A DNA stretch of 64,000 bases from a virus (lineage: Duplodnaviria > Heunggongvirae > Uroviricota > Caudoviricetes), in IMG/VR virus record IMGVR_UViG_3300014039_000029, positions 1 to 64,000 of that record. One strand, given 5' to 3'. Each line of letters begins with the position of its first letter. Position 1 is the first letter of the stretch. Below are positions 7,776 to 49,800 of this stretch, piece after piece. The notes under the pieces were generated by a model. It was given only the letters and a program-made list of their open reading frames with translations, was not told where the DNA came from and made no database searches. The translations under genes and the position numbers were made by a program.

Positions 7776-8091
7776 AAAGAACATCAAACAAAATTACCTC
7801 CTCCAAATCAAGAACATTCTTAAGAAGGTGGAGAAGTCTCAGGATGCAGCCGGTCATTTCCGCTGCCTAGTCCTTATGGGCGATAAGCAGGAGCAGAAAG
7901 CCTACTCCTATCTTCATGCCTCAAACGAGGACTTGAAGAACCTCATCCTATCGGCAATGCGTAATAGCGACCGCTTTACTTCGGCAGCAGCGGAAGCCTT
8001 CATGCAGTACGACAAGGAACTGAGTGAAAAAGAAAAGTCAGAAACCAAAAACAAAAATAACAATGAAGAAAATCCTATTCGAGAAGATTAA
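7768..8091 (+). CDS. Hypothetical protein
   Basis: 107-aa ORF. Its 3' end overlaps the start of the ATPase gene. Confidence 0.35.
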   Translation: MSKKNIKQNYLLQIKNILKKVEKSQDAAGHFRCLVLMGDKQEQKAYSYLHASNEDLKNLILSAMRNSDRFTSAAAEAFMQYDKELSEKEKSETKNKNNNEENPIRED

Positions 8092-10063
8092 GCTTCTCAA
8101 CTTCTGTGGAATCCGAGACCTAGAGGTTAATTTCGGTGAAGACCTCACTGTTATCTTTGGCAGTAATGGGGTGGGTAAGACCACGCTAGCTTCTGCATTA
8201 ACCTACGTCCTCTTCGGCACCGACATCAAAGGCAATGCCCTTGACATTAAGACCTTCGACCGAGACCACAACATTATCCCGGAAATCGCCCATGAAGCAG
8301 AGCTGACGCTTTCTGTAGACGGTGAGGAAACTACCTTGAAGCGTACCCTCTCCGACAAATGGACTGGCAACACATGTACCAACACCTACAAGTATTTCAT
8401 CAACGATGAGGTATGCACCGCAGGCGATTTTAAGAAATGCGTGGATGGCATTTGCCCCGAAGTAACCTTCCGCTTGTGTTCCTCGGCAACAGACTTTGTA
8501 TCTCGCCCATGGGCAGAGCAGCGCAAGTTCTTGCAGCAGTTGGTTCCCGAGATTTCCACCGATGCTATCACCGAGGGCGATGCTAAGTACGATTTCGTCC
8601 TCGAAGCCTTGAAGAAGCAAGACATCGAGAGTCTCTTGTACCACATCAAGTACAAGCGCAGCGAGGTTCAGAAGCAGCTCGATGAAATCCCAGTACGCCT
8701 TCAGGAGCTCAACGAGGCACTGCCCGAAAAGGAAGACTGGGATGCATTGGAGTCGCAGCATGATGCAAAGATTGAGGAGCTGAAAGAGACGCAATCAAAG
8801 ATTAATTCCTTCTCCACAGGTGGAGCAGCCCAAGTCCGCATCCAAGGCATCCGCAAGCAACTGGAGTTTCAGCGCAAGCGCATCGACCAAATGGAAAAGA
8901 GCGCACGCCTCCAGTCTGGTGACGAGGAGGTGAAGCATGGTTCCGACCTTATCACTGCCCGAACCGCCAAGTCCAAGGCAAAAGCCATGGTCGATGAGCT
9001 GCAAGCCAAGATGGACGGATTCACCGATACCGAGATTCACATCAAGCAGCAGCTCGATGAACTTGAAAAGTCTAAGAAGCAGGGCGCCAAGGATTACGAA
9101 GCAGTCTCTGCCGAGCAATGGCATTGGGATGACAGCCTGTCCTTCTGTCCGCATTGTGGTCAGCCTCTCCCTGTGGAGAACGTTTTGAAGATAAAGCGAG
9201 ATTCCGAAGACCGATTCAACAACGACAAGGCAGACCGCTTGAAGAAATTGGTAGTCTTGGCAGGTGACATCAAGGGTAAGCAAGCAAAGCTAAACGAAAT
9301 GTTGGAGCAGTTGCAGGAAGACCGCACCACTATCACCAACCAGCTCACCGAAGCCCACAAGGCTCTCAAGAATGCCGAGTCTCACTATTCCGAGGTTGAG
9401 AAAGAAAATCCAAGAAGCTACACAGAGATTCTCGCAGAGAACGACAACTACAAGAAAGCCATCGAAGAGGCAAACCGATTGGATGAAGAACTGGACAAAC
9501 CTCCTGTTGAGAGTGATGAGGATAGAAAAATACTCGATGAGTTAGAAAGACAATCAGGCTCTATCTCTTTGGACGCACACAGGCTCTACGCTCGCCTATC
9601 CACGAAGCAGCAGTACGACAAGGTTTCTGCCCTCATCGAAGAGCGCAAGAAAAGCAAAGAGACCTATCAGAATCAGCTAGACGAGTTGGACGAGAAGCTA
9701 GACATCGCCACCGACTACTATCAGCATTCTTGCTCACTCCTGGAAGACGAGGTTAACAAGCATTTCGAGTTTGTGCGTTGGTCTCTCTTCAAGACCAATC
9801 TCGATGGCGACAAGAAGCCTTTCTGCGAGTGCTACCACGATGGCGTACCTTACAGCCGTCTCAATGGTGCCGCCAAGGTCAATGCAGGAATCGACATCGC
9901 CTATACCATCGCCCAGTTCTACGATGTGTCCGTTCCGATGATACTCGATGAATGCGAGAGCAACCTCCATCCTATCTACAAGGAAGGTTACCAGCAGATA
10001 AGGCTGTCGGTAAGCCCAGACGAAACTCTTCAAATCAAGTGTTCAGATGGAGCTGAAAACTAA
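8063..10063 (+). CDS. Rad50/SbcC-like SMC-type ATPase with a CxxC zinc hook
   Basis: Likely start MKKILFEKIKLLNF. Walker A GSNGVGKTT, long coiled coils with a central CPHCG hook, then C-terminal Walker B MILDECE and NLH. Confidence 0.7.
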   Translation: MKKILFEKIKLLNFCGIRDLEVNFGEDLTVIFGSNGVGKTTLASALTYVLFGTDIKGNALDIKTFDRDHNIIPEIAHEAELTLSVDGEETTLKRTLSDKWTGNTCTNTYKYFINDEVCTAGDFKKCVDGICPEVTFRLCSSATDFVSRPWAEQRKFLQQLVPEISTDAITEGDAKYDFVLEALKKQDIESLLYHIKYKRSEVQKQLDEIPVRLQELNEALPEKEDWDALESQHDAKIEELKETQSKINSFSTGGAAQVRIQGIRKQLEFQRKRIDQMEKSARLQSGDEEVKHGSDLITARTAKSKAKAMVDELQAKMDGFTDTEIHIKQQLDELEKSKKQGAKDYEAVSAEQWHWDDSLSFCPHCGQPLPVENVLKIKRDSEDRFNNDKADRLKKLVVLAGDIKGKQAKLNEMLEQLQEDRTTITNQLTEAHKALKNAESHYSEVEKENPRSYTEILAENDNYKKAIEEANRLDEELDKPPVESDEDRKILDELERQSGSISLDAHRLYARLSTKQQYDKVSALIEERKKSKETYQNQLDELDEKLDIATDYYQHSCSLLEDEVNKHFEFVRWSLFKTNLDGDKKPFCECYHDGVPYSRLNGAAKVNAGIDIAYTIAQFYDVSVPMILDECESNLHPIYKEGYQQIRLSVSPDETLQIKCSDGAEN

Positions 10064-10283: not shown

Positions 10284-11150
10284 ATGGCAACAAATAAGCA
10301 GTTAGCAGTCAAGTCGTTCAACGACACATTAAACAACGCCTATTATCAGGCACAGTTGAAAAGCACCATGAAGGATAATGCAGGAACGTTCGCCACATCG
10401 CTCATGGAGCTGGTAACGTCAGATGAGAAGCTTCTCGCCTGTCCTCCCCAGTTGCTGATGGCAGAGGCGATGAAGGCAGCTTCCCTTCACCTTCCTCTCA
10501 ACAAGCAGCTAGGCTACGCCTACATCGTTCCTTATGGCAACACCCCTACCATGATTATCGGTTACAAGGGTCTCTATCAGCTTGCCATCCGTTCGGGACT
10601 CTACAAGAATATCAATGCCGACATTGTCTACGATGGAGAGTATCAAGGCTACGATAAGATTTCGGGCGAGCTCCATCTTGACGGGGAAAAGACCTCAAAC
10701 AAGGTTGTCGGCTACTTTGCCTTCCTAGAGCTTACCAATGGTTTCCGCAAGATGATGTACATGTCTCTCGATGATATGTGCCAGTACGCACGCAAGTATT
10801 CTGCCACCTTGAAGAACTGCAAGATGACGAACGAGCAGCTTGCGGATATGGCTCAGAAGCAATCCGAGAGCGGTCCAGGCACCAGCGTAGGTTGGTATGG
10901 TAATTTCAACGATATGGCAACCAAGACAGTTCTTCGCCGTTTGCTTTCCAAGTATGGTTATCTATCCATCGAAATGCAGAACGCAATGACCGTGGACGAT
11001 GTACCTACTGCCGAGGAGCAGCGTGATGCCGAGTTTGCCGAGGCTAAGGAGGTGGTTACCGTCGATGCTGAGACAGGAGAAATCAAGCAGCCAGAGTCTA
11101 GTGCTCCCGAAGCCGAGGCGAAAAAGCAAACCGACAACCCTTTCAAATAA
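10284..11150 (+). CDS. recT: RecT-family single-strand annealing protein
   Basis: AYIVPYGN...IIGYKGLYQLAIRSG and the C-terminal MATKTVLRRLLSKYGYLS match RecT hallmarks. Confidence 0.85.
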   Translation: MATNKQLAVKSFNDTLNNAYYQAQLKSTMKDNAGTFATSLMELVTSDEKLLACPPQLLMAEAMKAASLHLPLNKQLGYAYIVPYGNTPTMIIGYKGLYQLAIRSGLYKNINADIVYDGEYQGYDKISGELHLDGEKTSNKVVGYFAFLELTNGFRKMMYMSLDDMCQYARKYSATLKNCKMTNEQLADMAQKQSESGPGTSVGWYGNFNDMATKTVLRRLLSKYGYLSIEMQNAMTVDDVPTAEEQRDAEFAEAKEVVTVDAETGEIKQPESSAPEAEAKKQTDNPFK

Positions 11151-14208: not shown

Positions 14209-14604
14209 ATGAAACAGAAATACATAGTTGGTGATTTGGTTAGAATATCATTTATCTCAGATGATAAAATCTTTGAAATTATAGAGGGTGGTACTATAAA
14301 TCCATATATAGCAAAAGATATGGATGGGAAAGAAGCTATAGCGGAAGAACATAGTATAATCCCAATTCCTATTACTCCAGAGATTCTTGAAAAGAATGGG
14401 TGGAAAGTGTATCACAGAGGTACACGTTTTATTTTTATCATTGATGATAACAGCTATATAATTATAGAATGGAGAAATAATGAAGTATTTAAAGCCTTCC
14501 TGTTCAGAGGTGCGAAATATGCAAGACTTATTGATTTGTTGTATGTTCATCAACTCCAACACCTTCTCTTTGGATTAGGTTTAGATAGTGACATGGAAGT
14601 ATGA
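14209..14604 (+). CDS. Hypothetical protein, paralog of ORF 15178
   Basis: Shares IPI(P/L)TPEILEKNGWK and a C-terminal VHQLQHLLF with ORF 15178. Preceded by AAGTAAGTATG. Confidence 0.5.
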   Translation: MKQKYIVGDLVRISFISDDKIFEIIEGGTINPYIAKDMDGKEAIAEEHSIIPIPITPEILEKNGWKVYHRGTRFIFIIDDNSYIIIEWRNNEVFKAFLFRGAKYARLIDLLYVHQLQHLLFGLGLDSDMEV

Positions 14605-14842: not shown

Positions 14843-15175
14843 ATGAATAACAATATTTTTACCTTTGGAAAGTATAAAGGAAGACAAGTTACAAGTATTC
14901 TCAGAGAGAATCCAGAATACTTTGGTTGGTGTAAGAGCAATGTCAAAGGATTCAAATTCTCTAAGCGAGATTATGAGATTTATCTTGAATGGCTTCGTCT
15001 TTGTCAAGACGACCTGCAATTTACAGGCTATGAGAATAGCGATAATAACATAAAATTTCTTTTTCGCCAAGTAAGTTTAGGTGAGTTTGATGATTATTCA
15101 GACAACGAGTTTCTAACAAAAGAAACATGTAAGGAGTATCTTAATGGCAGTAAAGAACATTATTTTAAAAAGTAA
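14843..15175 (+). CDS. Hypothetical protein
   Basis: 110 aa. Preceded by AAGTAAGTATG. Confidence 0.45.
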   Translation: MNNNIFTFGKYKGRQVTSILRENPEYFGWCKSNVKGFKFSKRDYEIYLEWLRLCQDDLQFTGYENSDNNIKFLFRQVSLGEFDDYSDNEFLTKETCKEYLNGSKEHYFKK

Positions 15176-15177
15176 GT

Positions 15178-15501
15178 ATGAATAGAATTGAATATATCCC
15201 AGGAGATTTGGTAAATACATTGTTTGGAATTGCTAAAATAACGAATGTATATAAAGAGGGCAGTTATGATTTTGAAGGTAAAAGTTTCAGTGGTTCTGAT
15301 ACATGTGAACCAATTCCTCTTACTCCAGAGATTCTTGAAAAGAATGGGTGGAAGAAAACTGACGCAACTTGGATTTATAAAAGAGAAGATAGCGTCACAA
15401 TTTTCCGACTTTTAGACGATAAAAGTTATGCCGCATATATAGGAAATATAAGACTTTTAGAATTTCAGTTTGTTCATCAACTCCAGCACCTTCTCTTCTG
15501 A
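15178..15501 (+). CDS. Hypothetical protein, paralog of ORF 14209
   Basis: Preceded by AAGTAAGTATG. Shares 40-nt near-identical DNA blocks with ORF 14209. Confidence 0.5.
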   Translation: MNRIEYIPGDLVNTLFGIAKITNVYKEGSYDFEGKSFSGSDTCEPIPLTPEILEKNGWKKTDATWIYKREDSVTIFRLLDDKSYAAYIGNIRLLEFQFVHQLQHLLF

Positions 15502-15699
15502 TTGGGCTTAAAAACAGAAATGGAGGTATAGGTATGAACCATCTTACAAGACAAGATTTTATTCAACTTAAAAATATGTTATGCTTATATAGCAATCGGT
15601 ATGCAGGTACCAGCACAGAGGCTATGCACATACAAGAGGTTATACGGAGCATAAATAGAAGATTAAACGTTTAACACCTTCGGGCTAAATAGTGAGAAT

Positions 15700-16383
15700 A
15701 TGGAAGAAGAAAAAGTAATAAAGTCCTACAAGGGCTTCGATAAAAATATGCAATGCCAAGGCTTTCAATACGAAGTAGGCAAGGAATATGAAATTGATGG
15801 TGACATTAAATGTTGCAACCGTGGTTTTCATGCTTGTGAGTCACCTTTGGAAGTTTTCGACCATTACAATATGCTTAACTCTCGTTTCGCCGAGGTTGAG
15901 CAATCTGGTAAAATTGACAAAGAATATAAATCAACAAAAGTTTGTTCTTCTCGCATCAAGGTTAAGGCAGAGCTGAAACTTGCTGACATTATCAATATAG
16001 GTATTGAGTGGTTGAAAGATATTACCTCACCATCTAAGGTAAATAAATCAACAGACTTGAATGATAATGGTGGTTACTCTGCTAAGACTGGTTCAAGCGG
16101 TGACTATGCTCAGATTGGTTCAAGCGGTTACTCTGCTAAGATTGGTTCAAGCGGTGACTATGCTCAGATTGGTTCAAGCGGTTACTCTGCTAAGATTGGT
16201 TCAAGCGGTTACTCTGCTAAGATTGGTTCAAGCGGTGACTCTGCTCAGATAAATAGCACTGGCGAAGATTCTGTAATCATGTGTGCAGGTAATGATTCCA
16301 TTGCAAAAGCGAAAGTTGGTTCTTGGATAACACTTGCTGAGTGGGTATGGGATGATAAGAAAGAAGCGTTCCTAAGTGTGTAA
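15700..16383 (+). CDS. Hypothetical protein with an N-terminal Cys/His-containing domain and 9-aa tandem repeats
   Basis: N-terminus YKGFDKNMQCQGFQYEVG...CCNRGFHACE. Seven units of [GYSAKIGSS]/[GDYAQIGSS]. Confidence 0.6.
   Translation: MEEEKVIKSYKGFDKNMQCQGFQYEVGKEYEIDGDIKCCNRGFHACESPLEVFDHYNMLNSRFAEVEQSGKIDKEYKSTKVCSSRIKVKAELKLADIINIGIEWLKDITSPSKVNKSTDLNDNGGYSAKTGSSGDYAQIGSSGYSAKIGSSGDYAQIGSSGYSAKIGSSGYSAKIGSSGDSAQINSTGEDSVIMCAGNDSIAKAKVGSWITLAEWVWDDKKEAFLSV
16072..16260 (+). repeat. Seven in-frame 27-bp tandem repeats inside ORF 15700-16383
   Basis: Units GGTTACTCTGCTAAGATTGGTTCAAGC and GGTGACTATGCTCAGATTGGTTCAAGC alternate in the order A B A B A A B'. Confidence 0.85.
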
Positions 16384-16519
16384 AGACAGAGTATGTTGAT
16401 GGTGAACGTATCAAGGCAGATACTTGGTATCAACTCAAAAATGGGAAGTTTAAAGAAATAACAGATTAACTAACCACCTCTCCTTGGTGACAGCAGGGAG
16501 GGGGTGAATAGAAAGAGAT

Positions 16520-16828
16520 ATGAGTGCAATAGAATTTGGAAAATGTGATATTTGTGGGAAAGAGACCTATCTATCACGTACATATTTTAGATACAGAATT
16601 GGTGGATGTACTTGTTGTGGCTGCACGTTAAGTGATGGTACAAAAGGACATTTTGAGGTAGTCCATCATTGTAATAAGTGTATTCCTCGTTTACCAACAG
16701 TTATTCATCCATTGTTCAAAGCTTTAGATGGAAAGACTTACAGAGCGAACATTACGAATGTTTTGCCATTTGAAATTGAGGGAAAATTTCTCATTGAAGA
16801 ACCTGTAATTAAGGAGGACAAACAATGA
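16520..16828 (+). CDS. Hypothetical Cys-rich (zinc-ribbon-like) protein
   Basis: CDICGKE...CTCCGC...HHCNKC. Confidence 0.45.
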   Translation: MSAIEFGKCDICGKETYLSRTYFRYRIGGCTCCGCTLSDGTKGHFEVVHHCNKCIPRLPTVIHPLFKALDGKTYRANITNVLPFEIEGKFLIEEPVIKEDKQ

Positions 16829-17214
16829 ATCGTGATGAAGCAAAGCAGCTGTTGCCTATTATTAAGGCATTCAGTGAAGGGAAAGAGATAGAAAGACGCT
16901 CTTTCGGTGAGAAACAATGGAAAGAAGCTAACTATATTGTACATACTGATTGTAATGAGTATCGCATCAAGCCCTCACCTAAGTACCGTCCTTTTGCCAA
17001 CGCAGAGGAGTGTATGCAAGAGATGTTGAAGCACCAACCTGTGGGATGGTTAAAACAAAAAGTAAGCAAAGTAATATATTGTATTGGAAGCTGTGATATA
17101 GAAAATATTTATGTTGGTACAACCACAAAAATACATGCTTATAATAAAGCCTTAGATGAGTTCACCTTCTATGATGGTTCAGTCTTCGGTGTTAAAGAAG
17201 AAAGCGAGGGTTGA
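16825..17214 (+). CDS. Hypothetical protein
   Basis: 129-aa ORF. Confidence 0.45.
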   Translation: MNRDEAKQLLPIIKAFSEGKEIERRSFGEKQWKEANYIVHTDCNEYRIKPSPKYRPFANAEECMQEMLKHQPVGWLKQKVSKVIYCIGSCDIENIYVGTTTKIHAYNKALDEFTFYDGSVFGVKEESEG

Positions 17215-29029: not shown

Positions 29030-29545
29030 TTAAATTACACCCCTGAATGGCGTTCCGTCATCATTATACATCGTGCCTGTCATGTCCTTTAGGGTCTTGT
29101 CGCTTTTTGATGGTGCGTCTATGGAGTAAGCCAGCTTGATGGCACTCTCCAGATAGCTAGCCGTTTCATCGGCAAATTCCTTCGCTAGCTCTGGATAATT
29201 CTTCCCTAGCGTTACCTTCCCAATGTAGGCGATGGCATAGTTGGTAAAGATGTTTTCCACCGCTCCTACCTTGGCATCGTTTAGCCCATAAGTACTAAAG
29301 GTCAGCGTGCCTTCCGCACCCGATTCGTTGTAGCTCGTTATCTTGGGTGATAGCTCGCTGGCGAACGTCTCAGCCGCTCCATGGATGGCTTTGTCTAGGA
29401 TAGCCTCCTCGGTGCTCGATAGGGTAACACCTGCAAATATGGTGTTTCCCTGCTTGTCACCCTGTCGCTTTCCGACAAATGAAAGCTGTTCCTTTACCAT
29501 CTTTTTTAGGTCCGAAACATTGATGTTTATCGTTTTCTCGCTCAT
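29030..29545 (-). CDS. Hypothetical structural protein
   Basis: 171-aa ORF. Confidence 0.45.
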   Translation of the reverse strand: MSEKTININVSDLKKMVKEQLSFVGKRQGDKQGNTIFAGVTLSSTEEAILDKAIHGAAETFASELSPKITSYNESGAEGTLTFSTYGLNDAKVGAVENIFTNYAIAYIGKVTLGKNYPELAKEFADETASYLESAIKLAYSIDAPSKSDKTLKDMTGTMYNDDGTPFRGVI

Positions 29546-31551
29546 TATGCCACGTTGTTATAGTTAAAGAATTGGTTCACGGCGTTCTGGTCTGCGCCCT
29601 GCACCTGTCCGTTCTCATCAAGCTGCACGCCGCCCTGCTGTGCTGCCTGTTGCTGATACATAGCTTCCAGTTGCGCCTGCTGTTCCTGTACGCTTGCCAA
29701 AAGCTTGTCTGCGTATGGCTCGTTTACGTTCTGCAAGTACTGCACAAGGTTGATGGCTCCCATGCCGAGCAGTTCTTTCAACTCGTCGTTCTGTGCCGTG
29801 TTGTATGCAGCGGTCGCTGCGGCGTTCTTGATGCTTATCTTGAAGTGGATGTCTCTAGCCGAAAGTCGGTCGTAGTTATATACGTTCAATCCGCTCTTGT
29901 CAAATATTTTCCTACCGTCCTCATAGAACTGCTGTATAGTCATGCACTTCTTGGTAGCCAGTCGCTCGGTGAACACCTCCATGTCGCTCAGTATAGTGAA
30001 GAGCGAGGTGGTGGCGTTCTGACTCTCCTGCGCATATCTTGCCGCCGATGTACCTGCGCTTGGTGTCTTTCCCTGTAAGGCACCCGATACGTTAGTTACC
30101 TCCCTTATCAGGTTCAGCTCTATCTGCAGCAGTTCGTTGGTGCCGATGTTCACGGCGTTGCTGGTGATAATCTCTGGCTTCACGTTCGGCATCGTTCGCT
30201 TAGGCGAATAGAATATCCATCCGTCATATTCGATGGCTTCTTGCATGAATTGTTCTGGTGTCCTGTCGCCAAGCACGGTCCTTGGTATCATCTTGAAGCC
30301 CTTGAAGCTGCTTCTCAATGCCATGTCGTTCATCACGATTAGTCGGTTGATGTACCGCTGTTGGTCTATCACGTTCGCCATGAAGGGGTGAATCTCTCCG
30401 TTGATGTACGGATATAGTTTCATCGTGAAGGGATGGCTCTTATAGTCGTATGGCGTTTCCCCTTGGCAGAGCACCGTGCCGTCTGGTGCCATATAGGTGT
30501 AGTACCAGTACTTATCTGCTACCTCCCAACTCTTGATGTAGGCTCTCTCGTCCTCTGGCACGCCCATTTCCTCATATTGCTGTTCACGCTTGATGTTGTC
30601 GTTTCTCAGCTTGTTTATCATAGCCGTGTCTTCTAGGTCTATGCGGAAATATGCGTTGTTGCCACTTGACGCTATCGGGTCGAAGCATTGCAGCCTTGGC
30701 TTGGTCTCTGTGGTCCATACCTCAATCACCCTCACGTAGTGCTTTCCCTTGTTGCTGTAATCGAAGCTGAGGTTCTCCAACGATTTCTCCTCGTTAAACT
30801 CATAGCCACCTTCGCTCTCGTAAGAATCCTGTATGTCGAAGATACTATTCAGGTCGTTGATGGTAAGTCCATATTCCTCTCTGGCAAATTTCTGATACAA
30901 GTCTTCTCGGCTCACGTCATGCAGCACGCCTATCAAGCTGAGGTCGTTGTGTCTTGGGTCGCTGCCACACTCAAAAAACATGTGGTCGGGTTCCATCAGC
31001 TCCGTCCAAGCGTCTGGCATTTCCAGTTCCTTGTCTTCCCAGCTCTCCCTCACAAACATCTGTCCTCCTTGTAGGTAGTCCTTGATGGCGTGGTTCAGTA
31101 GGTCCTGCATTTCCGTGGTCTGCCAGTTACACTGCATCGTGGCACTCATCATGTCGCTCAACTGCCTTGATTCGTTGTCTCTCGCAAAACAAACTGGCTC
31201 CGTGCCCTGCTTGGCATAGAGACCTGCTATTGATTCCAAGATGCTCACCATGATGTTGTTGCTCATCGGGGTCATGTTGCGCTTCTCCATATAAGTGCGC
31301 TCTGTCATTTCCTCCCAACAGCCATCTTTGTACACTCTGATGATGTCGCTCCATTGGTCGCCTGTGCAGTATCTCATGGTTCTGGCTCTCGTCTCACGCA
31401 CGCCGCTCAGGTTGTTCCAAGCGTTCCTGCATCGGGTCAGCAGCTCCATGTCCGTTCCGTGCTCCTGTCTGCGTTTTCGTGCCTTCACCGAGTCGTATGT
31501 GTTGCGCCGTGGCATCACCTTGCTAAGTGTCAGTATTTTGGTCTTTGCCAT
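29545..31551 (-). CDS. Large structural protein, portal candidate
   Basis: 668 aa with a Q-rich C-terminus. First gene of the minus late operon, facing the scaffold and capsid genes. Confidence 0.35.
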   Translation of the reverse strand: MAKTKILTLSKVMPRRNTYDSVKARKRRQEHGTDMELLTRCRNAWNNLSGVRETRARTMRYCTGDQWSDIIRVYKDGCWEEMTERTYMEKRNMTPMSNNIMVSILESIAGLYAKQGTEPVCFARDNESRQLSDMMSATMQCNWQTTEMQDLLNHAIKDYLQGGQMFVRESWEDKELEMPDAWTELMEPDHMFFECGSDPRHNDLSLIGVLHDVSREDLYQKFAREEYGLTINDLNSIFDIQDSYESEGGYEFNEEKSLENLSFDYSNKGKHYVRVIEVWTTETKPRLQCFDPIASSGNNAYFRIDLEDTAMINKLRNDNIKREQQYEEMGVPEDERAYIKSWEVADKYWYYTYMAPDGTVLCQGETPYDYKSHPFTMKLYPYINGEIHPFMANVIDQQRYINRLIVMNDMALRSSFKGFKMIPRTVLGDRTPEQFMQEAIEYDGWIFYSPKRTMPNVKPEIITSNAVNIGTNELLQIELNLIREVTNVSGALQGKTPSAGTSAARYAQESQNATTSLFTILSDMEVFTERLATKKCMTIQQFYEDGRKIFDKSGLNVYNYDRLSARDIHFKISIKNAAATAAYNTAQNDELKELLGMGAINLVQYLQNVNEPYADKLLASVQEQQAQLEAMYQQQAAQQGGVQLDENGQVQGADQNAVNQFFNYNNVA

Positions 31552-35428: not shown

Positions 35429-35707
35429 ATGGAGAATATTCAAGCCACATACGATGCCAACGAGCTAGCTTGGGTTACGCCCATCCTCACCCTCCATAGA
35501 GACATCTTCCTAAAGATAGACCTCAAAGAGAAGGGCAAGGTGGTTATTCGCCAGTCCGACGATAAGGGCAATTTCCCTCGCATACCAATCCGCCGTCACA
35601 AGGACACTCAGTCCTTCGAGTTCCGTATCTCGGTCATCCCCGATACCGTCCAAATCCAAATATTCACTTCTACAGAACCAAAAGAAATTAAATATGCCTA
35701 CATTTAG
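35429..35707 (+). CDS. Hypothetical small virion protein
   Basis: ATG at 35429 in the frame of the 35306 ORF. Confidence 0.35.
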   Translation: MENIQATYDANELAWVTPILTLHRDIFLKIDLKEKGKVVIRQSDDKGNFPRIPIRRHKDTQSFEFRISVIPDTVQIQIFTSTEPKEIKYAYI

Positions 35708-38501
35708 AGAAGACGATAAGTTAGGTACCAAGGTTCCGCTCATCAAGACCGCCGACCTCAACGACAAGTCTGTCACTACAGAAAAACTTGCCGAAGGCTC
35801 CGTTGTCAACTCCAAGTTGGCTCCAGAGTCGGTTACGAAGGATAAGTTCGACAAAGAATTGCTCCAAATCTTCGAGGCTGCTGCTGGTCTTCCTGCAAAT
35901 CTTATAGAGACGATTCAAAATGTAGATACCACGCTTATTGATCATCAGCGGCAAATCTCAGCCAACGATGATGATATTTCCGACCTACAGGTTAAGACCA
36001 AGCAAATCAAAGACACCGTTGATGGCATAGCCGTCAGTGGAGGAGCATCCGTAGGCTCGGCTGTCACTTACGACAATACCCAGAGCGGATTGGATGCCCA
36101 GAATATCCAGAATGCTATTGACGAGTTGGTTAACAACCTTGGTCATTACGAGACCAACGAGGAGTGGCTACGTGCCTACACCGATGCCGAAGGTAAGTTT
36201 CTTTGGGGCATCCGTGTGGATGGTAGCATCGACTGGTCTGTTGGCATCCCTCGCCCTATCCAAAAGAAGATAGAGGAACTTATCGCCACCGATACCGCCA
36301 TTCAAGAGTCCATAGCCCAGCTTCGCACAGAGTTGACGGAATCCTTGAACAGCAACATCCAGTCGCTCAAAGACAACGAGATTAAGAATCTCCAAGACAC
36401 CAAGGTTGACAAGGAGGAAGGCAAGTCCCTCATTGAAGACGAGGTGAAGGAGTGTTTCAAGGTAATAGAGAACGAAGAGTTCATCTATGGCATCACAGAC
36501 AGTGAGGATAGATTGCTTTTTTGTATCTATAGAGAGACAGGCAAGCCATACTTCCCTCTCAATGAAATGTACCACGTAGAGCAGAACGAGGAGTTCTTTG
36601 CTGTCTGGCTTGATGCAGCAGACCATGTATTACTTGGTATCAGAAGAGACGGAGAAATCATTGGTGAGATTCATGCAGTCAATGCCTTGAAGCAAGTTGT
36701 CTCTCAGCTTCAATCAGACCTTGCAACCTTGCAGGAGAAGGTAGGTACAATAGACACAAGCCTTCAAGACCTTCTTTCCGTCTTCTCCTTGCAAGGGAAT
36801 GAGGAGTACCTTGCAGTAGAGACTGATGCAGACGGCAAGGTGCTGTCTTCCACAAATCCAGATGGTAGCCACTATATCCACAAGGTTAAGTCTGAGACTA
36901 TCCCAACAGAGTTTGAGCACATCGAAGACCCAGAGGGAAGAATGGAAATCACTACTGATGCAGATGGCAAGGTGATAGGCTACAGAGACTCGGAAGGTAC
37001 TCGTTATGAGCACAAACAAAATATCAAAAATCTATCCGTCAATCATTTCCAAGAACTTTCGCAAGAAGCCTGCAATGACATCATCAACTCACTTGCTGCC
37101 TACGGGTTGTCTATGGAAAATAAGTTAGATTTCAGCGATTATAAAGATATGTCCCTTGCTATTCCTAGAGGCGTGGCTATTGTAAATGTTATGGCAGATT
37201 CTCTTGCTACATCAAAAACGCAGAACAAAGATGCCATACTGGAATTTTGGGGAAGCGGTATATATTTCCGTAAAAATATCATCCTCAATGCACAAGGGCA
37301 AACATCTATGAATTTTACCAAAAAAAACCAGTCTTTTGACTTTAAGGATGGAACTTCCATTAAATTCGGTGACTGGGTTTCGCAAGATAGTTTCCATTTG
37401 AAAGCCAATGCTGATGATGTGTTCTGTGGTATCAACAATGTTGTATATAAATATGCTGACTATGTGGTAGGCAAGACTGATACAAGGTCAAATAGAGTCC
37501 TTCGCTCCACCACAACAACATATAAAATGGCTAGTGGTAAATTTGAGGCAGATTTCGATGATAATGCCAAGTGCATACCTGATGGATTCCCGATTGCTCT
37601 TCATCTTAATGGAGAATTCTATGGAATGTACTCATGGAACATGAAGAAACATCGTGCCAACTACTCCATGGACAAAAAAGACTACACTAGTATTATGATT
37701 GATCCAGATAGTCTGACATCTGAGACATTTTGGAATGGAACTATTGATTGGTCGAAATTTGAACTGAAAAATCCAAAGACTTTGATATGTATGGACGGTT
37801 CAAAATATGATGGTGATAATCCTAAAGAGTTGATTGATTCAACATCAGAAAAATATGATGAATCAAATAAAGACATTAAGAATACTACCATTACAAAATC
37901 AATACTAGTAAATCTTTCCAATGCAATGCCTACTATCAATACCTTATCAAACGATGAGGATAAGAAAGCCAAGTTCAAGGAAATATTCGACTTTGACAAC
38001 CTTGTTGTTTATTTCCTTGTCAGCAATGCCATTGGAAATTATGATGGTCTTTGGGGAAGAAATACTGTGTTTACGATTTATAAAGGAGGAAAGTGTGGTT
38101 TCAATTTCTATGATTGCAATGCTGTTTTCGGTCGTGAGGCAAGAGGGTTTTACAATATAAAACCAGATGAGTTAGAAAAAGCCACTGGCACACCTTTCGC
38201 TATGCTATTTGACTTGTTCAAAGATGAATTATCTGCGAAGTATAAAGACCTAAGAGACAGTGGTCTTATTTCCGCAGACATCATCATCAACTATCTTGAA
38301 AATTGGCTAAATATACTTGGAGTATATTCTATTAAAAAGAATCTGGAAAGATGGAATGATATAGTCTCTTATCGTGATGGAAACCAGACTTACCCATCAT
38401 ATCCACAAGAATATGGCTTTTTCGATTCTACAGAAAGATGCAAAAAATGGCTAGAGCAAAGAATTGCTTTCATGGATAGTACATTCAATTATAATGTTTA
38501 A
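35694..38501 (+). CDS. Tail fibre or receptor-binding protein (935 aa)
   Basis: N-terminal MPTFREDDKLGTKVPLIKTADLNDKSVTTEKLAEGSVVNSKLAPESV-type fibre motif. Central coiled coils and repeated EEF/YLAVETDADGKV blocks. Distinct C-terminal globular domain. Confidence 0.55.
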   Translation: MPTFREDDKLGTKVPLIKTADLNDKSVTTEKLAEGSVVNSKLAPESVTKDKFDKELLQIFEAAAGLPANLIETIQNVDTTLIDHQRQISANDDDISDLQVKTKQIKDTVDGIAVSGGASVGSAVTYDNTQSGLDAQNIQNAIDELVNNLGHYETNEEWLRAYTDAEGKFLWGIRVDGSIDWSVGIPRPIQKKIEELIATDTAIQESIAQLRTELTESLNSNIQSLKDNEIKNLQDTKVDKEEGKSLIEDEVKECFKVIENEEFIYGITDSEDRLLFCIYRETGKPYFPLNEMYHVEQNEEFFAVWLDAADHVLLGIRRDGEIIGEIHAVNALKQVVSQLQSDLATLQEKVGTIDTSLQDLLSVFSLQGNEEYLAVETDADGKVLSSTNPDGSHYIHKVKSETIPTEFEHIEDPEGRMEITTDADGKVIGYRDSEGTRYEHKQNIKNLSVNHFQELSQEACNDIINSLAAYGLSMENKLDFSDYKDMSLAIPRGVAIVNVMADSLATSKTQNKDAILEFWGSGIYFRKNIILNAQGQTSMNFTKKNQSFDFKDGTSIKFGDWVSQDSFHLKANADDVFCGINNVVYKYADYVVGKTDTRSNRVLRSTTTTYKMASGKFEADFDDNAKCIPDGFPIALHLNGEFYGMYSWNMKKHRANYSMDKKDYTSIMIDPDSLTSETFWNGTIDWSKFELKNPKTLICMDGSKYDGDNPKELIDSTSEKYDESNKDIKNTTITKSILVNLSNAMPTINTLSNDEDKKAKFKEIFDFDNLVVYFLVSNAIGNYDGLWGRNTVFTIYKGGKCGFNFYDCNAVFGREARGFYNIKPDELEKATGTPFAMLFDLFKDELSAKYKDLRDSGLISADIIINYLENWLNILGVYSIKKNLERWNDIVSYRDGNQTYPSYPQEYGFFDSTERCKKWLEQRIAFMDSTFNYNV

Positions 38502-43795: not shown

Positions 43796-43834
43796 AAGGA
43801 GGTGAGCCATTCAAGCCCACCTCCTTTTATTTTA
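43796..43834. terminator. Bidirectional rho-independent terminator
   Basis: AAGGAGGTG-N13-CACCTCCTT stem followed by TTATTTT. Lies between the convergent + small genes and the giant minus-strand gene. Confidence 0.6.
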
Positions 43835-46800
43835 GTTCAACTTATCCAGCTGTTCCACAGCATCCATCATGATTCTGTCAATATTCTCATTGGCAAACTT
43901 GATACTCTCGTTGTCACCCGACTTGTCACGAAGTTTCTTCCATTGCTTCATCTGCTTCTCGGCGAGCTCTATCACTCTTACCTTTGCTGCATCCTTTGAG
44001 TTTTGGAAGTTGTAGTAGTCAGCAACGTTCGTCAGCCTCTTGTCAATCGGAACATTCTTCGATTTCAGCCTATCCACATTGGCGATAGTCTTCTCCATTT
44101 CGTCCTTGTAGTTGTACCATTTGCTCTTCGTTCTCTGCAAGCTACTCTGCTCGCTAGGCGTATAGAGTAGGGAGCGAACGAAAGGAATATCCTTGGTCTC
44201 TGTATCAGAACCATGTTTGATAGCTCCAAGTGTACGTTCTGCAAAGGTAGCTGCACCGCCACCGATACCACCGAAGAAGTGGTTGACCATACTAGGGTTA
44301 GTAACCATGTCAAGGAAACCATTGCCTAGCATATCCTCGTTACCCTTGGCTACATCGTTGGTTTGCGCATTCACCCACTTATTGAGGGTCTTCAATCCCT
44401 CTGGCGTACCATTGTAGGCTCTTTGCCAAGCAGGAACGTTCTCGTTCCAATCACCTCGTCTCTCGATAGGCGCACCCTTCCAATCAGAGTTTTGTTCCCA
44501 TTCGATGAAAGGAGCGATGGCAGAAGGGGAGATAGCCTTGATAGTTTCCTCCAAAGGTTTCTTGCCAGCCGAAGAGTTGCCGAGGTAATCCATCACTGGC
44601 ACCAACTGCGACATACAGCCCACTGCATCTAGATAAGGATTCTTCTGTCCGCTCACGTTAGGCGAGAAGGTAAGACCTGCCGCCAAGTCGCCAAGACCAT
44701 AGAAGGCTCTCAACTCAATGGCAAGCGGAATGGTGATAAACTCACCACCACCTTTATAGATACAGAGGTTGTTTCTTCTCACGTAGTCAGGTAGCTCTCC
44801 GTATGGGTCTTTCACGCCATTGCGGTCTTTTTCGTCCTCACTAGCAATTAGCGCATTGTTCAGCAGCGCACCCAAGGCACCGAGCGCAAACGGAATGGAA
44901 AGCATATTCACCGATGTACCTACAGGATGGTTCTTCAGGTTCTTCACAAGAAGGTTCGTGCTCTGAATACCTGCGTTGAAGAACATCGAGCAGTGTCTGA
45001 GATAGCTTGATGTAAAGCCGTAAGCCCATCTTGCAGCAGCCTTTGTGCCGGTCATTTCTCCGTTCTTGAAGCTCTTGATGGCATCACCGCTTCCGTGTCT
45101 GTTGAAGTTGGTAGATACCTCCTTAGCATCATAAGTAGAGCGAACCACCGAACGTCCGAAATCACGACTAGCGCAATAGGTGGAGAATCGCGCGATATTT
45201 TCAGCCACCTCGTTCAGGTTCTCCAGATTGCCAAAGAAGAAATCACGTACCATCTTGCCGCCACGCTGCACCTTGCTACGCTCACCCTTCACATCCTGCT
45301 TATACTGCTTCTCCCATTCCTTCATGTTCTTAATCTGCACCCAGCCAGTCTCACCGCCGTTCTCCATAAACTCCTTGAAGTATCTCTGAATCTTGTCGTT
45401 CATATCCAAGGTGCCGTTGCGATACTTGGCAAACAATCCGAGACCTGTAGAGCCTTGCAAATCCTTCATGCTGATGTTTGATGCTCCCTTGTACAAGCCA
45501 AGCTGTGCGTAATACTTAGCCCACAAGCCGCCGTATCTTGCGCCTTCCTTAGTAGTAACGTTGCTAGATGCAAACTCAGCATCACGCATGATGTTTCTCA
45601 TCACAAACTCAGGGTTATAGGAAGTACAGAGCTGCGCCATCATTCGAGAGATTGAACCAAGAGGCTTCATGATGCCCTTAGCAGCCGAGTTCTCCAGCAA
45701 TCCATTCAATGCCTGTGCCGCTCTAGGGTTTCCGTTCACGATAAAGGAGTGCTTCTTTCCTGCAATCATCACATCGACTATATGCTGCGATTTGTTCTCC
45801 GCTCTCTGGAACTTATACCCGATTCTGCCCCTGCGATACACCTTCGTAGCCAAGCCCTTCGATGCCAAGTCCTTCATTTCCATATTGAAGTCGCTCACAA
45901 TCTGGCTGATTTCGTCAGCGGTCGCATCGTCAGGAATGTCTGGGTAACGCTCCACGGTGGTCTGAGTGATAGGGTCGCTTACATACCAAACGCTCGTTTC
46001 TGTAACTAGATTATTATTGGAGTTATTTCTGATGAATCTAGCGAACGCCTGTTTGATGGCATTCTGTCCGCCGTTCTTGATGGCTCTGTTGCCCATGGCT
46101 CCAATCTGAGCCAAGATGTTCGTTTCACTCAGATACTTGTGTCCCCTTGCCCTCATGATCGTCTTGCCGATATAAGATTTAGGGTCGCCCTTCTCGGTGA
46201 TATATCCGTACGTATCTTCCGCCGTAGCCTCGTCATACTTTCTCAGAGGCACATACCAGTTGAACATCTCCGAAACATGACCATACAGCTCCCTGCTTAT
46301 CAGTCCGTTCCTATAGTCACAGCCGATGGCATACTGGGTTGCAGTCTTCACCTTATCCCAATAGTCCTTCACTGCGCCCTTCTTGATGTCCTCCATTCTG
46401 CCCTCAGAGTCCATCACGCTCTGTATAGCCTCCGCATCATCGTAAGGGTCAGAACTTTTCTCCACCTCCTGAATGGCGTGAATACCCGAATAGTCGTGCT
46501 CGCCAGCATCAAACTTATTCGTTTCATCCACGTAAGTACGGATGAAGTCATCCATCTGCTTGTAATACTCCTTCAAGTCGATGTCACCACGCTCCAACTT
46601 CTCGTCAAGTGTCGCCTTCTCGTTGTTCCAATCATTCTCAATGGTGTCAGCAAGCTTCTTCTTTTTCTCGTCCATGCGCATGTCCTTCAAGGCATCACGC
46701 ACATACAAGATACGGTTGCGCTCCAAACCATGCTTGGTAATCATATAGAGGTTGAAATTACGAATCTTCTCATCGTCATTCTTCCCATCGAAGGCATTCA

Positions 46801-49800
46801 GCACCTCAGCCATCGCCTTGTCGAGAGGCTTCATCACGTTGCGCTCAAACATCTGAGCCGCATCGCTCATCGCTCCCTGCATCGTGTTTTGTAGGATATA
46901 AGGATTCTCCGAGGATGCAATATCCTCAATCTTCTTGCCAGGCACAATCGCCGTCATCAAGTTCTTAAGAGAAAGCATATTGTCCATATAGCTCTCAGTG
47001 AACATATAGCCGTGCTCATCAAGCGAACGATGGTATCTGTCAAGAGCCGTTCCAGTCGATGGGGTAGTGCGGAAGTGAATCTGTCCGTCAGTTGCCTCTT
47101 GGTACTCAGCCTTAGGCAAGTCGCCCAAGTCCCGAGCCTTGCCATCATTACTCTGATACATACCACCCTTGGCGATAACGTCAGGCACATCCTCATGGTC
47201 GAGACGGTATCTTACCGCCTCGGCTCTCATCTTCCAGTAAGGGTCGTTAGGGTTCTTCTGCAAGTTCTTGCTCAACCATAGCAAGTACTTCACATCTTTT
47301 GTGTTAGGAGCCATGCGATAGCCTATTTCGTGCAAGAAGTCAGTAACCTTATTCTTCAAGTTTCTCCAGAAACCAGCCTCGCCTCTTCCTTCCTCGGCAA
47401 GTCGGGCGATACCCTCCTCAATGGCATTATACACATTGAACGGATTGTACTTCATTTCCTCCATCACCAACTTCTTCAAGTCGGCGTTCTCAGGCTTATC
47501 CAAGTCATACCACACATCACGCAGGAACCTGTTGAATCTGTCTTCGCCAAACAACTCTCTCATTCCCTTGTGTCCCACAACCTCATGCCAGATAGTCTTC
47601 TCGGCAGTATAGCGGTCGTGGATGTTAGGCATGTACAAGTGTACCTCGCCAGTCTTCTCGTCATACCAGCCAGTTACATTCTTACCTGCTTCGATGTCAG
47701 CCTTCACCCTAGGGTTCGTAATCTCGTCCGCCGAATTAACCTCGTTCGCTTTCACGCCCACCTTCTCACTCACGTTGGCGATATGGTTAGCCACGATGCT
47801 CTGTGCATCATTACCCTGCTCACCATTGGTAGTACGATAGTGTGCTCTACTCTCCTCGAAGTCATTAGGTGTCTTAACCTTCACATCCATACTATTCAAG
47901 ACATGAAGCACATCATGCAATTTGTCGGCATCGAACGTAGCCCAAAAGTTGTTGCCTTTGGATTGGAAGTTGTGACCATGTACCAAGCCTAGCAGCTCTT
48001 GGTTCAAATAATACTTACCGCCTTCCTTTCTGCTAGCAGGAACATAGATGGTGTACATAGAGCCAAAGTTCTTAGCTATTCTCAACTTGCCGTCAGTTGA
48101 TTTCAATTCCGTTCCGCCTTCTTTCTTGGTAAACCAATTATATGCCTTCGCAATAGGCATATTACCTGTAATTTCCTCCGTGCTCACGCTGTCTGGCACC
48201 AAGATACCTTGCTTAACCTTACCGTCATCGGTAGTGTATGAAATCAAGTGCCCGATGCTATTGTTGTCAGCCAAAGCCTCCAACATATTACCTGTAATGA
48301 TACGTCCTGTTGTTCTGTCTTTCTTAGGAATCATTCTATCCCAAGAATCCATAGTGATAACCTTACACTCCTTGGCGAATCTTTCTGTGTCTGTATCAAT
48401 TCTTTCAAGTACCTTTGGTCTGGTCAGTGGTATTTCCACACGCTTTCTTGAATCGGTGGTAGCAAAGACGATGGAAGATGAACCTAAGTTGTAGTTCTTG
48501 TCGTACTTGAAACCGATAACTCTAGCAAACTCAGGATATGATGAAGTGGCATTGTCTTCCATATACCAATCCGATGGAACACTAACAGTTTTGTTTGGGT
48601 CGCAAACATAGAGCGGACCAATAAACATTTCATATTTAGTGTTTATGTTTGCGATAGCTTCTGATTGTTTCTCCAAAAGTTTCTTTTTGACATCAGCGAC
48701 AACATCAGATATTCTAGTCTTTATCTCTTCTTCTGTCAAAATATGTTCGCCCGGTGCGAGCTGGGTTCCCTTGTCGATTTTCTTTTGAACCTTGTCGTTC
48801 TGTTTCTCTAAAGACTTGCGAGTATTTTCCTCCGCTTTGGCAACTTTCTTTTCCATCTGCTCTGCCATTTTAGCCTTGGTTTCCTCAATCTTGGCAGCTT
48901 GTGCTTCCTTGATTTCAGCAATCTTATCGCTTCTCCAAGTTTCATAGTCCTTGCCGCCGAACATCTTCTTTTGTGCTTCCTGCACCTCCTCAGCCTTCAT
49001 AGGCTTCTTCAAAACATTCATTTCCACAGTTTCGATATAGGTGTTGTCGGCAAAGGCGTTGTCGCCGTTAGGGTCTGAGCCTTCCTTCCAAACCTCACGC
49101 TTCAAGGTCTTAGCCTCCAGTGGCATGTCTGTTATTTCGAGGTCGTTCATACCCATATCGTTCAACTGCTTAATCTTTTGCGCGTAGGCATCCGAAATGT
49201 CTTTTAGTACCACTTCCTGCTCCTTCACTGGTAACAAAGTCAGTCGCTTCATTACCTCGTAAGCAGGAGAGGAAACCGTGTCCTTTGTGTTCTTTCTTAA
49301 CTCTCCAAGCGACAAACCATCCTTGGCGTACTCCATGAATCCCCAACCCAGAGGGTCGGCGAGTTTGTTGTAATACTCTGGGTGTTGCGCCATATACTGC
49401 AAGACTATCTCATCACCATACTTGTTGGTGAAGTCTTGCACATCTACCTCGTTGAATTTACTCTTTTGAGAAGAAGTCGTGTTGGCATCCAATGATTTCA
49501 GTTTGTTCTTGAACATCATCATCAGTCGTTGTTCGGCTGGGATGGATGAAACTAAGTAAACGTACTTTCCTCGTCTTACCTGTCCTGTGCGGTCGATACG
49601 ACCACGCATTTGCACCTCCTCGTTGATATTCCCTTGCATCTGAGCGAATATCATGGTGCGCTGTCTTTGGTCTTTAAACTTAGTAGAGGCATGAAGAGAA
49701 ATACCAGTTGAGGCAGAACGGTTCAAGATAAGCACGTCAAGATCACCATTGTTGAATCGGTCTGCCAAGGCATTCTTGTTGGTATCGGTGCGCTTTTGTC

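Follow-up and report, generated by a model that had tools for sequence, protein, structure and literature searches.

A truncated DUF7666-family gene with a tandem-repeat array

The stretch of viral DNA analysed here, hereafter the window, comprises positions 1 to 64,000 of the IMG/VR virus record IMGVR_UViG_3300014039_000029 and carries on its plus strand a small gene with an internal array of 27-bp tandem repeats. As it stands, the open reading frame (ORF) at 15700-16383 encodes 227 amino acids. Residues 7-99 match the Pfam family DUF7666 (PF24703) with 117.1 bits against a cut-off of 27, over profile positions 1-94 of 95, and the match to phrog_4433 has an E-value of 5.6e-49. The gene is a member of this catalogued, uncharacterised family, and 15700-16383 is a truncated allele of it (Table 1).

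The DUF7666 domain at the N-terminus (N-domain) matches 4,521 clusters at the 50% identity level (E ≤ 0.001). Most full-length members combine this domain with repeats of period nine and a C-terminal domain of the pattern ...G.W..L...VDG..IK.D.WY.L..G.F.E. The repeat unit has nine residues as a rule and rarely eight, and its scaffold differs between subfamilies (AQIGSS, SAATNT, GAASAT). Rheinheimera phages (115 records) match in the N-domain only and carry pentapeptide repeats, and thus offer no natural series for unit counts. Homologues are present in phages of Salmonella (ES18 gp53), Pseudomonas, Ralstonia, Vibrio, Acinetobacter, Clostridioides, Blautia and Bacteroides, as well as in Bacteroidales, Prevotella and Leyella genomes. 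The phage collection contained no near-identical DNA for either the gene region or a 20-kb structural block, and no mention of DUF7666, PF24703 or the PHROG numbers was found in the searchable literature. The NCBIfam model YdhT reached 46.7 bits against a cut-off of 300, with the match confined to the repeats. In four family representatives (P0124, P0160, P0259 and P0268) the frame switches inside the array, and P0124 reads IGRLRSDWF repeats; such arrays commonly contain either sequencing errors or real frameshifts.

The array was located by Tandem Repeats Finder at 16072-16250 (period 27, 6.6 copies, 90% matches) with a score of 295, the highest in the window, the runner-up scoring 75. The original prediction of seven in-frame 27-bp units was borne out by the repeat search, in which all seven are in register. 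Three of them (16126, 16180 and 16207), not four as had been proposed, are identical; unit 16072 departs from them at a single base (ACT for ATT, giving Thr for Ile), and units 16099 and 16153 share one sequence. The two unit types were also described as alternating, which holds strictly for the first five units only, and the array is better put as three two-state sites per unit. Two marks of recent duplication are visible in it. The doubled 54-bp block is the mark of a recent block duplication (16072-16152 and 16126-16206 are 99% identical), and the adjacent identical pair of units is the mark of a recent single-unit duplication.

Table 1. Features of the repeat gene and of other genes in the window
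Feature	Position	Strand	Sequence or remark
ORF as it stands	15700-16383	+	227 amino acids
N-terminal DUF7666 domain, residues 7-99	15718-15996	+	predicted ADP-ribosyltransferase-like fold; K11, C19, C39, G42-F43-H44, C46, P49, Y56, G70
Array of seven in-frame 27-bp units	16072-16260	+	G-[Y/D]-[S/Y]-A-[K/Q]-I-G-S-S; variable unit bases 4, 8, 13
Unit 1	16072 (start)	+	GYSAKTGSS
Unit 2	16099 (start)	+	GDYAQIGSS
Unit 3	16126 (start)	+	GYSAKIGSS
Unit 4	16153 (start)	+	GDYAQIGSS
Unit 5	16180 (start)	+	GYSAKIGSS
Unit 6	16207 (start)	+	GYSAKIGSS
Unit 7	16234 (start)	+	GDSAQINST
54-bp two-unit block, two copies	16072-16125, 16126-16179	+	YSK-DYQ, YSK-DYQ; one mismatch
Adjacent identical unit pair	16180-16233	+	YSK, YSK
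In-frame part of conserved C-terminal domain	16261-16362	+	GEDSVIMCAGNDSIAKAKVGSWITLAEWVWDDKK; AlphaFold pLDDT 61-84
4-bp deletion site	between 16362 and 16363	+	AAGAAA/GAAGCG in the window; from alignment with L081
Stop codon of the ORF	16381-16383	+	created by the 4-bp deletion
Displaced gene remainder, -1 frame	16365-16469	+	SVPKCVKTEYVDGERIKADTWYQLKNGKFKEITD plus stop
SMC-like ATPase	8024-10063		upstream gene
RecT	10284-11150		upstream gene
Small paralogous ORFs	14209-14604, 15178-15501	+	no Pfam match
Cys-rich ORF	16520-16828	+	102 amino acids; no Pfam match
P22-like portal	29545-31551	-	
CotH kinase-like domain protein	35694-38501	+	935 amino acids; E 1.2e-9
ORF with ParB-like and helicase domains	43832-60709	-	5,625 amino acids

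Truncation of the window allele

The stop codon that ends the ORF is real in the window sequence, but it was created by a 4-bp deletion, as the alignment with metagenome contig L081 and a comparison with six relatives show. At the deletion site the five closest relatives, L081 among them, read AAGAAAAAACGAAGCG and the sixth reads AAGAAAGAACGAAGCG, the missing four nucleotides (nt) being present in 6/6. The resulting -1 shift runs the frame into the stop and leaves the last 34 conserved codons of the gene out of frame with the window ORF. This displaced remainder matches exactly the C-terminus of the intact relatives P0120, P0023, P0035 and P0022. The conserved C-terminal motif is not in frame with the window ORF, which as it stands lacks the three-part architecture of PHROG 4433/27197. 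With the displaced stretch added, the match to phrog_27197 rises from an E-value of 1.8e-4 to 4.1e-17, and phage homologues found by tblastn cover residues 2-257 of the reconstructed protein in one piece. Contig L081 encodes P0120, a protein of 257 amino acids that outside the repeats equals the reconstructed window protein, and 257 amino acids is the length of intact relatives with the same unit number. Among the 77 IMG/VR relatives with a detectable ORF, 67 have the conserved C-terminus; of the other ten, eight run into a contig end within the array, L062 has a divergent end and one is anomalous.

An exact 24-nt pattern spanning the deletion site had no match in IMG/VR. The deletion lies about 100 nt past the array and is thus not a repeat-assembly problem; it is very recent, as the sequence on either side of it shows 100% identity to intact alleles. 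In the full-length AlphaFold model the residues that are lost make up three strands with predicted local distance difference test (pLDDT) values of 84-87, so the truncated product is probably impaired or inactive. Frameshifted copies are also found in Salmonella phage Emek (NC_018275, 'gp53 with frameshift') and in fEg-Aba01 (MT344103), so disrupted alleles recur in cultured phages.

Turnover of the array among relatives

Most of the arrays compared here come from short-read assemblies. When the window was aligned with L081 over 15082-16499, the 189-nt array held 11 mismatches and the other ~1,230 aligned nt none; with the next block shared with L081 included (12 mismatches in 1,555 nt), the enrichment in the array has a binomial p of 4.5e-8. 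The 372-nt 5' part of the gene is 100% identical in the window, L081, L084, L046 and L083. Complete arrays among these five have 7, 7 and 12 units in different orders; in L046 and L083 the contig ends within the array after ~6 units. As far as L083 reaches, its array equals that of L084 minus units 4-6, a clean 81-bp in-frame deletion seen in contigs of different samples. Alleles at 95-99.5% identity have 11-15 units, and at 80 IMG/VR loci the ORFs range from 228 to 428 amino acids in steps of nine, with a period-9 Gly run of ~5-26 units. Among cultured phages, the flanks of the homologous genes in fLi-Aba02 and fLi-Aba03 have 0 mismatches in 2,860 nt, the proteins have 345 and 291 amino acids, and the genome lengths differ by exactly 162 nt, or 6 × 27.

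The expectation that unit number varies among related phages and metagenomes is therefore upheld, and the locus is a variable-number tandem repeat, its unit number differing between relatives with conserved flanks. The array diverges far faster than the flanking DNA and changes in whole-unit steps, 27-bp blocks being duplicated or deleted; that unit number varies widely is a robust result.

Two contigs of the Leyella stercorea isolate MSK.21.24, L095 (NODE_45) and L104 (NODE_11), end inside a homologous array at similar coverages of 185 and 166, with the 5' and 3' parts of the gene split between them. They hint at the host group, and the host of the window phage probably belongs to the Prevotella/Leyella group.

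Variation at three codons per unit

The pattern of variation within units was analysed in a set of 955 units from 89 loci. Nearly all variation that changes an amino acid lies at unit bases 4, 8 and 13, the other varying bases being silent. Base 4 is G, T or A in a ratio of ~56:34:9 and gives Asp, Tyr or Asn at residue 2, base 8 is A or C and gives Tyr or Ser at residue 3, and base 13 is A or C and gives Lys or Gln at residue 5, the last two sites both being close to 50:50. All eight combinations of D/Y, S/Y and K/Q are common and their order is near random. Neighbouring units are nearly uncorrelated, and the fraction of same-state pairs at lags 1-4 (0.51-0.59) gives no clear two- or three-unit super-repeat.

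In the closest alleles the remaining 24 bases of the unit, silent sites included, are alike in nearly every unit. Thus, the array is being homogenised, and the three sites are nonetheless mixed in every array. The same positions stand out in distant subfamilies with other scaffolds, where 56 of 69 arrays have their two most variable positions directly after an invariant Gly, with D/Y/N dominating at the first and Y/S/R/Q at the second. These patterns suggest that selection favours a mixed set of residues at fixed positions; they are not fully explained.

Predicted fold of the N-terminal domain and of the repeats

The N-domain was modelled with a pLDDT of 94.3, and its fold list is dominated by proteins of the ADP-ribosylation fold, which make up ~45 of the top 60 entries. 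The list values are 8.1 for BC2332, 6.6 for PARP15, 6.0 for Tpt1, 5.9 for PARP13, 5.5 for both Arr and PARP4, 5.3 for AcrF11, 5.2 for TreX, 5.1 for TreTu and 5.0 for diphtheria toxin; pertussis and cholera-type toxins, MbcT, ParT, DarT and others follow further down. BC2332 has been placed in SCOP d.166.1.6 (PMC3000352) and predicted to be toxin-like (PMC3024214). Previously, a homologue in three Acinetobacter phage genomes was annotated independently as a putative ADP-ribosyltransferase (ART) through a structure match to Arr (PMC7354433). An ART-type (d.166) fold of the N-domain is well supported for a predicted structure.

Across 139 diverse members, K11, C19, G42, F43, H44, C46, P49, Y56 and G70 are invariant or nearly so, and C39 is conserved in 96%. 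The original prediction had pointed to a conserved-looking Cys/His cluster, and this is true of Cys19, Cys39, His44 and Cys46, whereas the neighbouring Cys38 is not conserved. In the repeats, the scaffold residues G1, A4, I6, G7, S8 and S9 would probably build up a solenoid similar to a beta-roll, in which each unit supplies one short strand.

Genome context

As predicted, the gene lies in a variable region of small genes and not in the structural block. It is found downstream of the RecT recombination module, among small early ORFs of the same orientation in the rightward region; both the first large leftward ORF and the nearest gene of the structural block lie ~6 kb away, and the portal gene ~13 kb. 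The genes upstream encode an SMC-like ATPase, RecT and a metallo-beta-lactamase-like (nuclease-like) protein. Near-identity with L081 and L084 ends ~30 nt past the displaced stop (at 16499) and resumes at 16943 or 17919, which places the repeat gene at a mosaic junction. The gene that follows it is not the same in the window, L081, L086 and L088. A scan for terminators and promoters near the repeat gene gave none exceeding the shuffled expectation.

In ES18 the homologue gp53 directly follows gene N in the early-left operon, before cIII, kil and erf, and in Acinetobacter phages the homologue belongs to the lysogeny module. Directly downstream of the homologue in L086, the region 1081-1719 matches Sequestin/Tad2-like families (anti-Thoeris). 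These positions fit an accessory role in host takeover, counter-defence or exclusion, without deciding between them.

Proposed explanation and its alternatives

The observations as a whole are best explained by an early or accessory DUF7666 protein with an ART-fold head, a recombining repeat surface and a C-terminal domain, of which the window holds a recently truncated allele; we put the probability of this explanation at roughly 0.6. The intact protein has three parts, an N-domain of ~100 residues with a predicted ART-type fold and four invariant Cys/His residues, a central array of nine-residue units and a conserved beta-rich C-terminal domain. Units would be gained and lost by replication slippage or by unequal homologous recombination between units, which the phage's own RecT-type annealing protein may assist. 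The variable residues 2, 3 and 5 would face the solenoid surface, and selection would keep this surface mixed and changeable, as might be expected of a partner-binding face in an arms race. The N-domain would be the effector part and may use NAD+. The likeliest role would be in early host takeover or counter-defence, the latter being a guess.

Several results weigh against this explanation. No experimental or literature data on any DUF7666 member were found, and the PADLOC models of anti-phage defence gave 0 families at E ≤ 1. Sequence or profile similarity of the N-domain to a known ART family was not detected: hmmsearch with its profile against the PDB returned nothing at E ≤ 10 (a search with the full-length profile gave collagen matches only, driven by composition), DUF7666 alone recurred when 39 diverse N-domains were compared with Pfam at E ≤ 10, and hhalign gave probabilities of 0.2% against Arr-2 and 0.45% against an Arr-family profile. 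Thus, the Arr-based annotation of the Acinetobacter homologues is not reproducible at the sequence level. An H-Y-E or R-S-E motif was not established in the N-domain; His44 lies on a strand followed by a helix, and an aromatic residue at position 63, Glu67 and Glu91 are conserved. The invariant Cys-Cys-His-Cys set may instead be a metal site, for zinc. In the full-length model the repeats (residues 113-180) have a pLDDT of 23-39, so a solenoid is not established; they might be disordered, or need to oligomerise in order to fold. Plain unequal crossing-over should homogenise the three variable sites too. Lastly, individual unit counts and orders, including the window's seven, may be wrong in short-read assemblies.

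The last point can be taken further, to the claim that the differences in unit number and order arose altogether in assembly, short reads having been collapsed, expanded or joined into chimeras across a near-perfect repeat, perhaps in the window's array as well. Contigs of the compared set end inside the array in ten cases, and the Leyella stercorea isolate assembly breaks there too (eight IMG/VR contigs, two metagenome contigs and two isolate contigs); several Pseudomonas phage records stop within the gene, fLi-Aba03 has N exactly at the variable bases, and the frame switches inside the arrays of many database ORFs. However, the longest exact internal repeat of the window array is ~67 nt, which ordinary reads can reach, and neighbouring variable sites are separated by ≤18 bases, a spacing at which k-mers of 119-127 should not collapse. 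The three-unit deletion between L083 and L084 is clean and comes from different samples, more than 60 complete ORFs with 5 to 26 units each retain an intact conserved C-terminus, and arrays vary across thousands of family members, all of which makes an assembly artefact decidedly unlikely. The repeats might also be a neutral spacer, a flexible Gly/Ser-rich linker of unconstrained length whose variable residues serve no function. The very low pLDDT over the repeats, the tolerance of 5 to 26 units and the Gly- and Ser-rich composition would suit such a linker, but six of the nine unit residues are strictly conserved, with Ala and Ile alternating (Ala-x-Ile) as is typical of a beta-strand that has one face buried, and some members carry pentapeptide repeats, which are known solenoid formers. 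In addition, the same relative positions vary in distant subfamilies with other scaffolds, and in close arrays every polymorphism changes an amino acid while silent sites are homogenised; we therefore consider a neutral spacer doubtful. For a virion structural protein, with the repeats as a trimeric triple beta-helix like those of tail fibres and spikes, one can cite weak matches (E 0.002-0.1) between the repeat region and PHROG tail-fibre families and the low confidence of the monomer model, which could mean an obligate oligomer. Those matches involve low-complexity repeats only, however, the gene is placed among early genes away from the structural block and its ES18 homologue in the early-left operon, and an ART-fold N-domain is not a fibre feature, so that this role is very improbable.

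The same architecture could also serve another role, that of a prophage toxin in a toxin-antitoxin pair, or of an abortive-infection or superinfection-exclusion factor protecting the lysogen. In temperate Acinetobacter phages the gene adjoins, within the lysogeny module, a small gene termed an antitoxin by its authors, many ART-fold proteins are toxins, and the recurrent disrupted alleles (window, fEg-Aba01, Emek) would suit a costly or toxic gene. Against such a role stand the lack of a PADLOC match, the lack of a conserved partner gene in close relatives, where the downstream gene differs, the position of the ES18 gene in a lytic operon behind N and that of the window gene among early genes of the same orientation; we regard it as possible, if on the unlikely side. 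Two explanations were rejected. Targeted hypermutation, in which a diversity-generating retroelement or another site-directed process writes the variable bases, resembles the present case in its few focused codons, its alphabet rich in Tyr, Asp, Asn and Ser and the persistence of polymorphism while the rest of the unit is homogenised. Yet no template repeat was found, a second copy of the array being absent from the whole window, and a Pfam scan of 21 window ORFs, most but not all of the large ones among them, revealed no reverse-transcriptase domain. The changes are G/T, A/C and A/C dimorphisms and not adenine-specific, the second base of the NAC codon stays A, and minor variants are the expected transition products of major ones, which leaves this process with next to no probability. 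A programmed -1 ribosomal frameshift near 16360 would restore the conserved C-terminus, whose coding sequence is fully kept in the -1 frame straight after the shift point. In 6/6 of the closest relatives, however, the protein is encoded in one frame; the -1 frame does not open before 16359 and the 0 frame is closed at 16381, and the 22-nt stretch GAAAGAAGCGTTCCTAAGTGTG contains no X-XXY-YYZ slippery heptamer. With flanks 100% identical to intact alleles and a very recent lesion, the preserved downstream sequence tells little, and programmed frameshifting is hardly credible.

Beyond the early/accessory protein with a recombining repeat surface, a more far-reaching idea is that DUF7666 is a diversity system driven by recombination, in which a shuffled solenoid surface would retarget an ART-fold effector to changing proteins of hosts or rival phages. 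Each unit could contribute two or three variable residues of an antibody-like alphabet (Asp/Tyr/Asn, Ser/Tyr/Arg/Gln and Lys/Gln), and shuffling could rewrite both length and pattern. If true, it would be comparable to variable lymphocyte receptors or to retroelement-diversified proteins, but would work through tandem-repeat recombination alone. We offer it tentatively and give it little weight. In a still more speculative variant, the variable residues themselves would be the acceptors for modification by the N-domain.

Comparison with known systems

The reconstructed window protein most resembles its DUF7666/PHROG 4433 relatives ES18 gp53 and fLi-Aba02 gp30c, with which it shares the N-domain, the three-part architecture, the nine-residue repeat logic, the C-terminal motif and the early or accessory position. 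It differs from the relatives in that the window allele is truncated; the scaffolds differ between subfamilies, a few of which have eight-residue or pentapeptide units. From members of the ART superfamily (SCOP d.166: BC2332-like proteins, PARP catalytic domains, Tpt1/KptA, Arr, the anti-CRISPR AcrF11, the Rhs toxins TreX/TreTu and diphtheria toxin), to which it shows no detectable sequence or profile similarity, the DUF7666 domain differs in being shorter, with ~100 residues, and in having no identified H-Y-E or R-S-E residues. Its invariant Cys-Cys-His-Cys set is not known as a defining motif of those families.

Nonapeptide repeats of the consensus GGxGxDxUx form the beta-rolls of RTX proteins such as CyaA and alkaline protease. 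The window array shares with them its nine-residue period, a Gly-rich turn that leads into a short strand, and a variable copy number. However, its motif is G-x-x-A-x-I-G-S-S (in full, G-[DYN]-[SY]-A-[KQ]-I-G-S-S), which does not fit the RTX consensus with its conserved Asp, and it has two inward-facing hydrophobic positions per unit where RTX has one. Asp is present in ~56% of units, at another position than in the RTX motif, so calcium binding is unlikely, and by its composition the window protein looks cytoplasmic.

Repeat proteins that change length by slippage or unequal recombination are known among bacterial surface proteins and in the collagen-like repeats of phage host-range proteins. 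In-frame units of near-identical DNA, copy numbers that differ in close relatives and conserved flanks are common to these proteins and the present array, but the DUF7666 protein is not taken to be a surface or virion protein. In addition, three codons per unit stay polymorphic here in every array while the rest is homogenised, at the same positions in distant subfamilies. Repeat-length change by recombination between units is a well-known mechanism; what is less ordinary is found at the level of the family, namely the predicted ART-type fold and the fixed variable positions, which stay mixed despite homogenisation.

DUF7666 genes occur in phages and prophages of thousands of lineages, ranging from gut Bacteroidales to Salmonella, Pseudomonas, Acinetobacter, Vibrio and Clostridioides. 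The present analysis adds three testable features to this family: a predicted ART-type fold, a repeat block with fast turnover and fixed variable positions, which may mark a binding surface under diversifying pressure. If the protein acts in counter-defence, the family would represent a large unexplored class of phage effectors.

The array also has consequences for annotation, as it breaks short-read assemblies and has been mislabelled as collagen-like, C-type lectin or CRISPR; the window gene call itself merits a flag as a frameshifted allele. Homologues are labelled elsewhere 'C-type lectin precursor', 'collagen-like' and 'pentapeptide', the lectin label being misleading, and in Vibrio phage 1.185.O (MG592551) the array is annotated as CRISPR spacers. 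DUF7666-annotated proteins are listed in giant viruses as well (BFVD matches in Hyperionvirus, Sylvanvirus and Megavirus), and the same list of weak matches contains ankyrin-repeat proteins of Megavirus and Tupanvirus.

Other features of the window

Upstream of the repeat gene lie the two small paralogous ORFs, with P-[IL]-TPEILEKNGWK and VHQLQHLLF as common motifs, and a 44-nt piece of one of them is also present in L081. The next ORF downstream encodes a Cys-rich protein (CDICGKE...CTCCGC...HHCNKC) that is probably a zinc-ribbon protein. The single long ORF on the minus strand combines a ddrB-like ParB domain with a Strawberry-notch-type helicase (AAA_34 and Helicase_C_4) and LPD38, and looks like the 'large polyvalent protein' of some phages and plasmids. 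A CotH kinase-like domain was found in one further large protein, and the P22-like portal suggests a podovirus-type phage.

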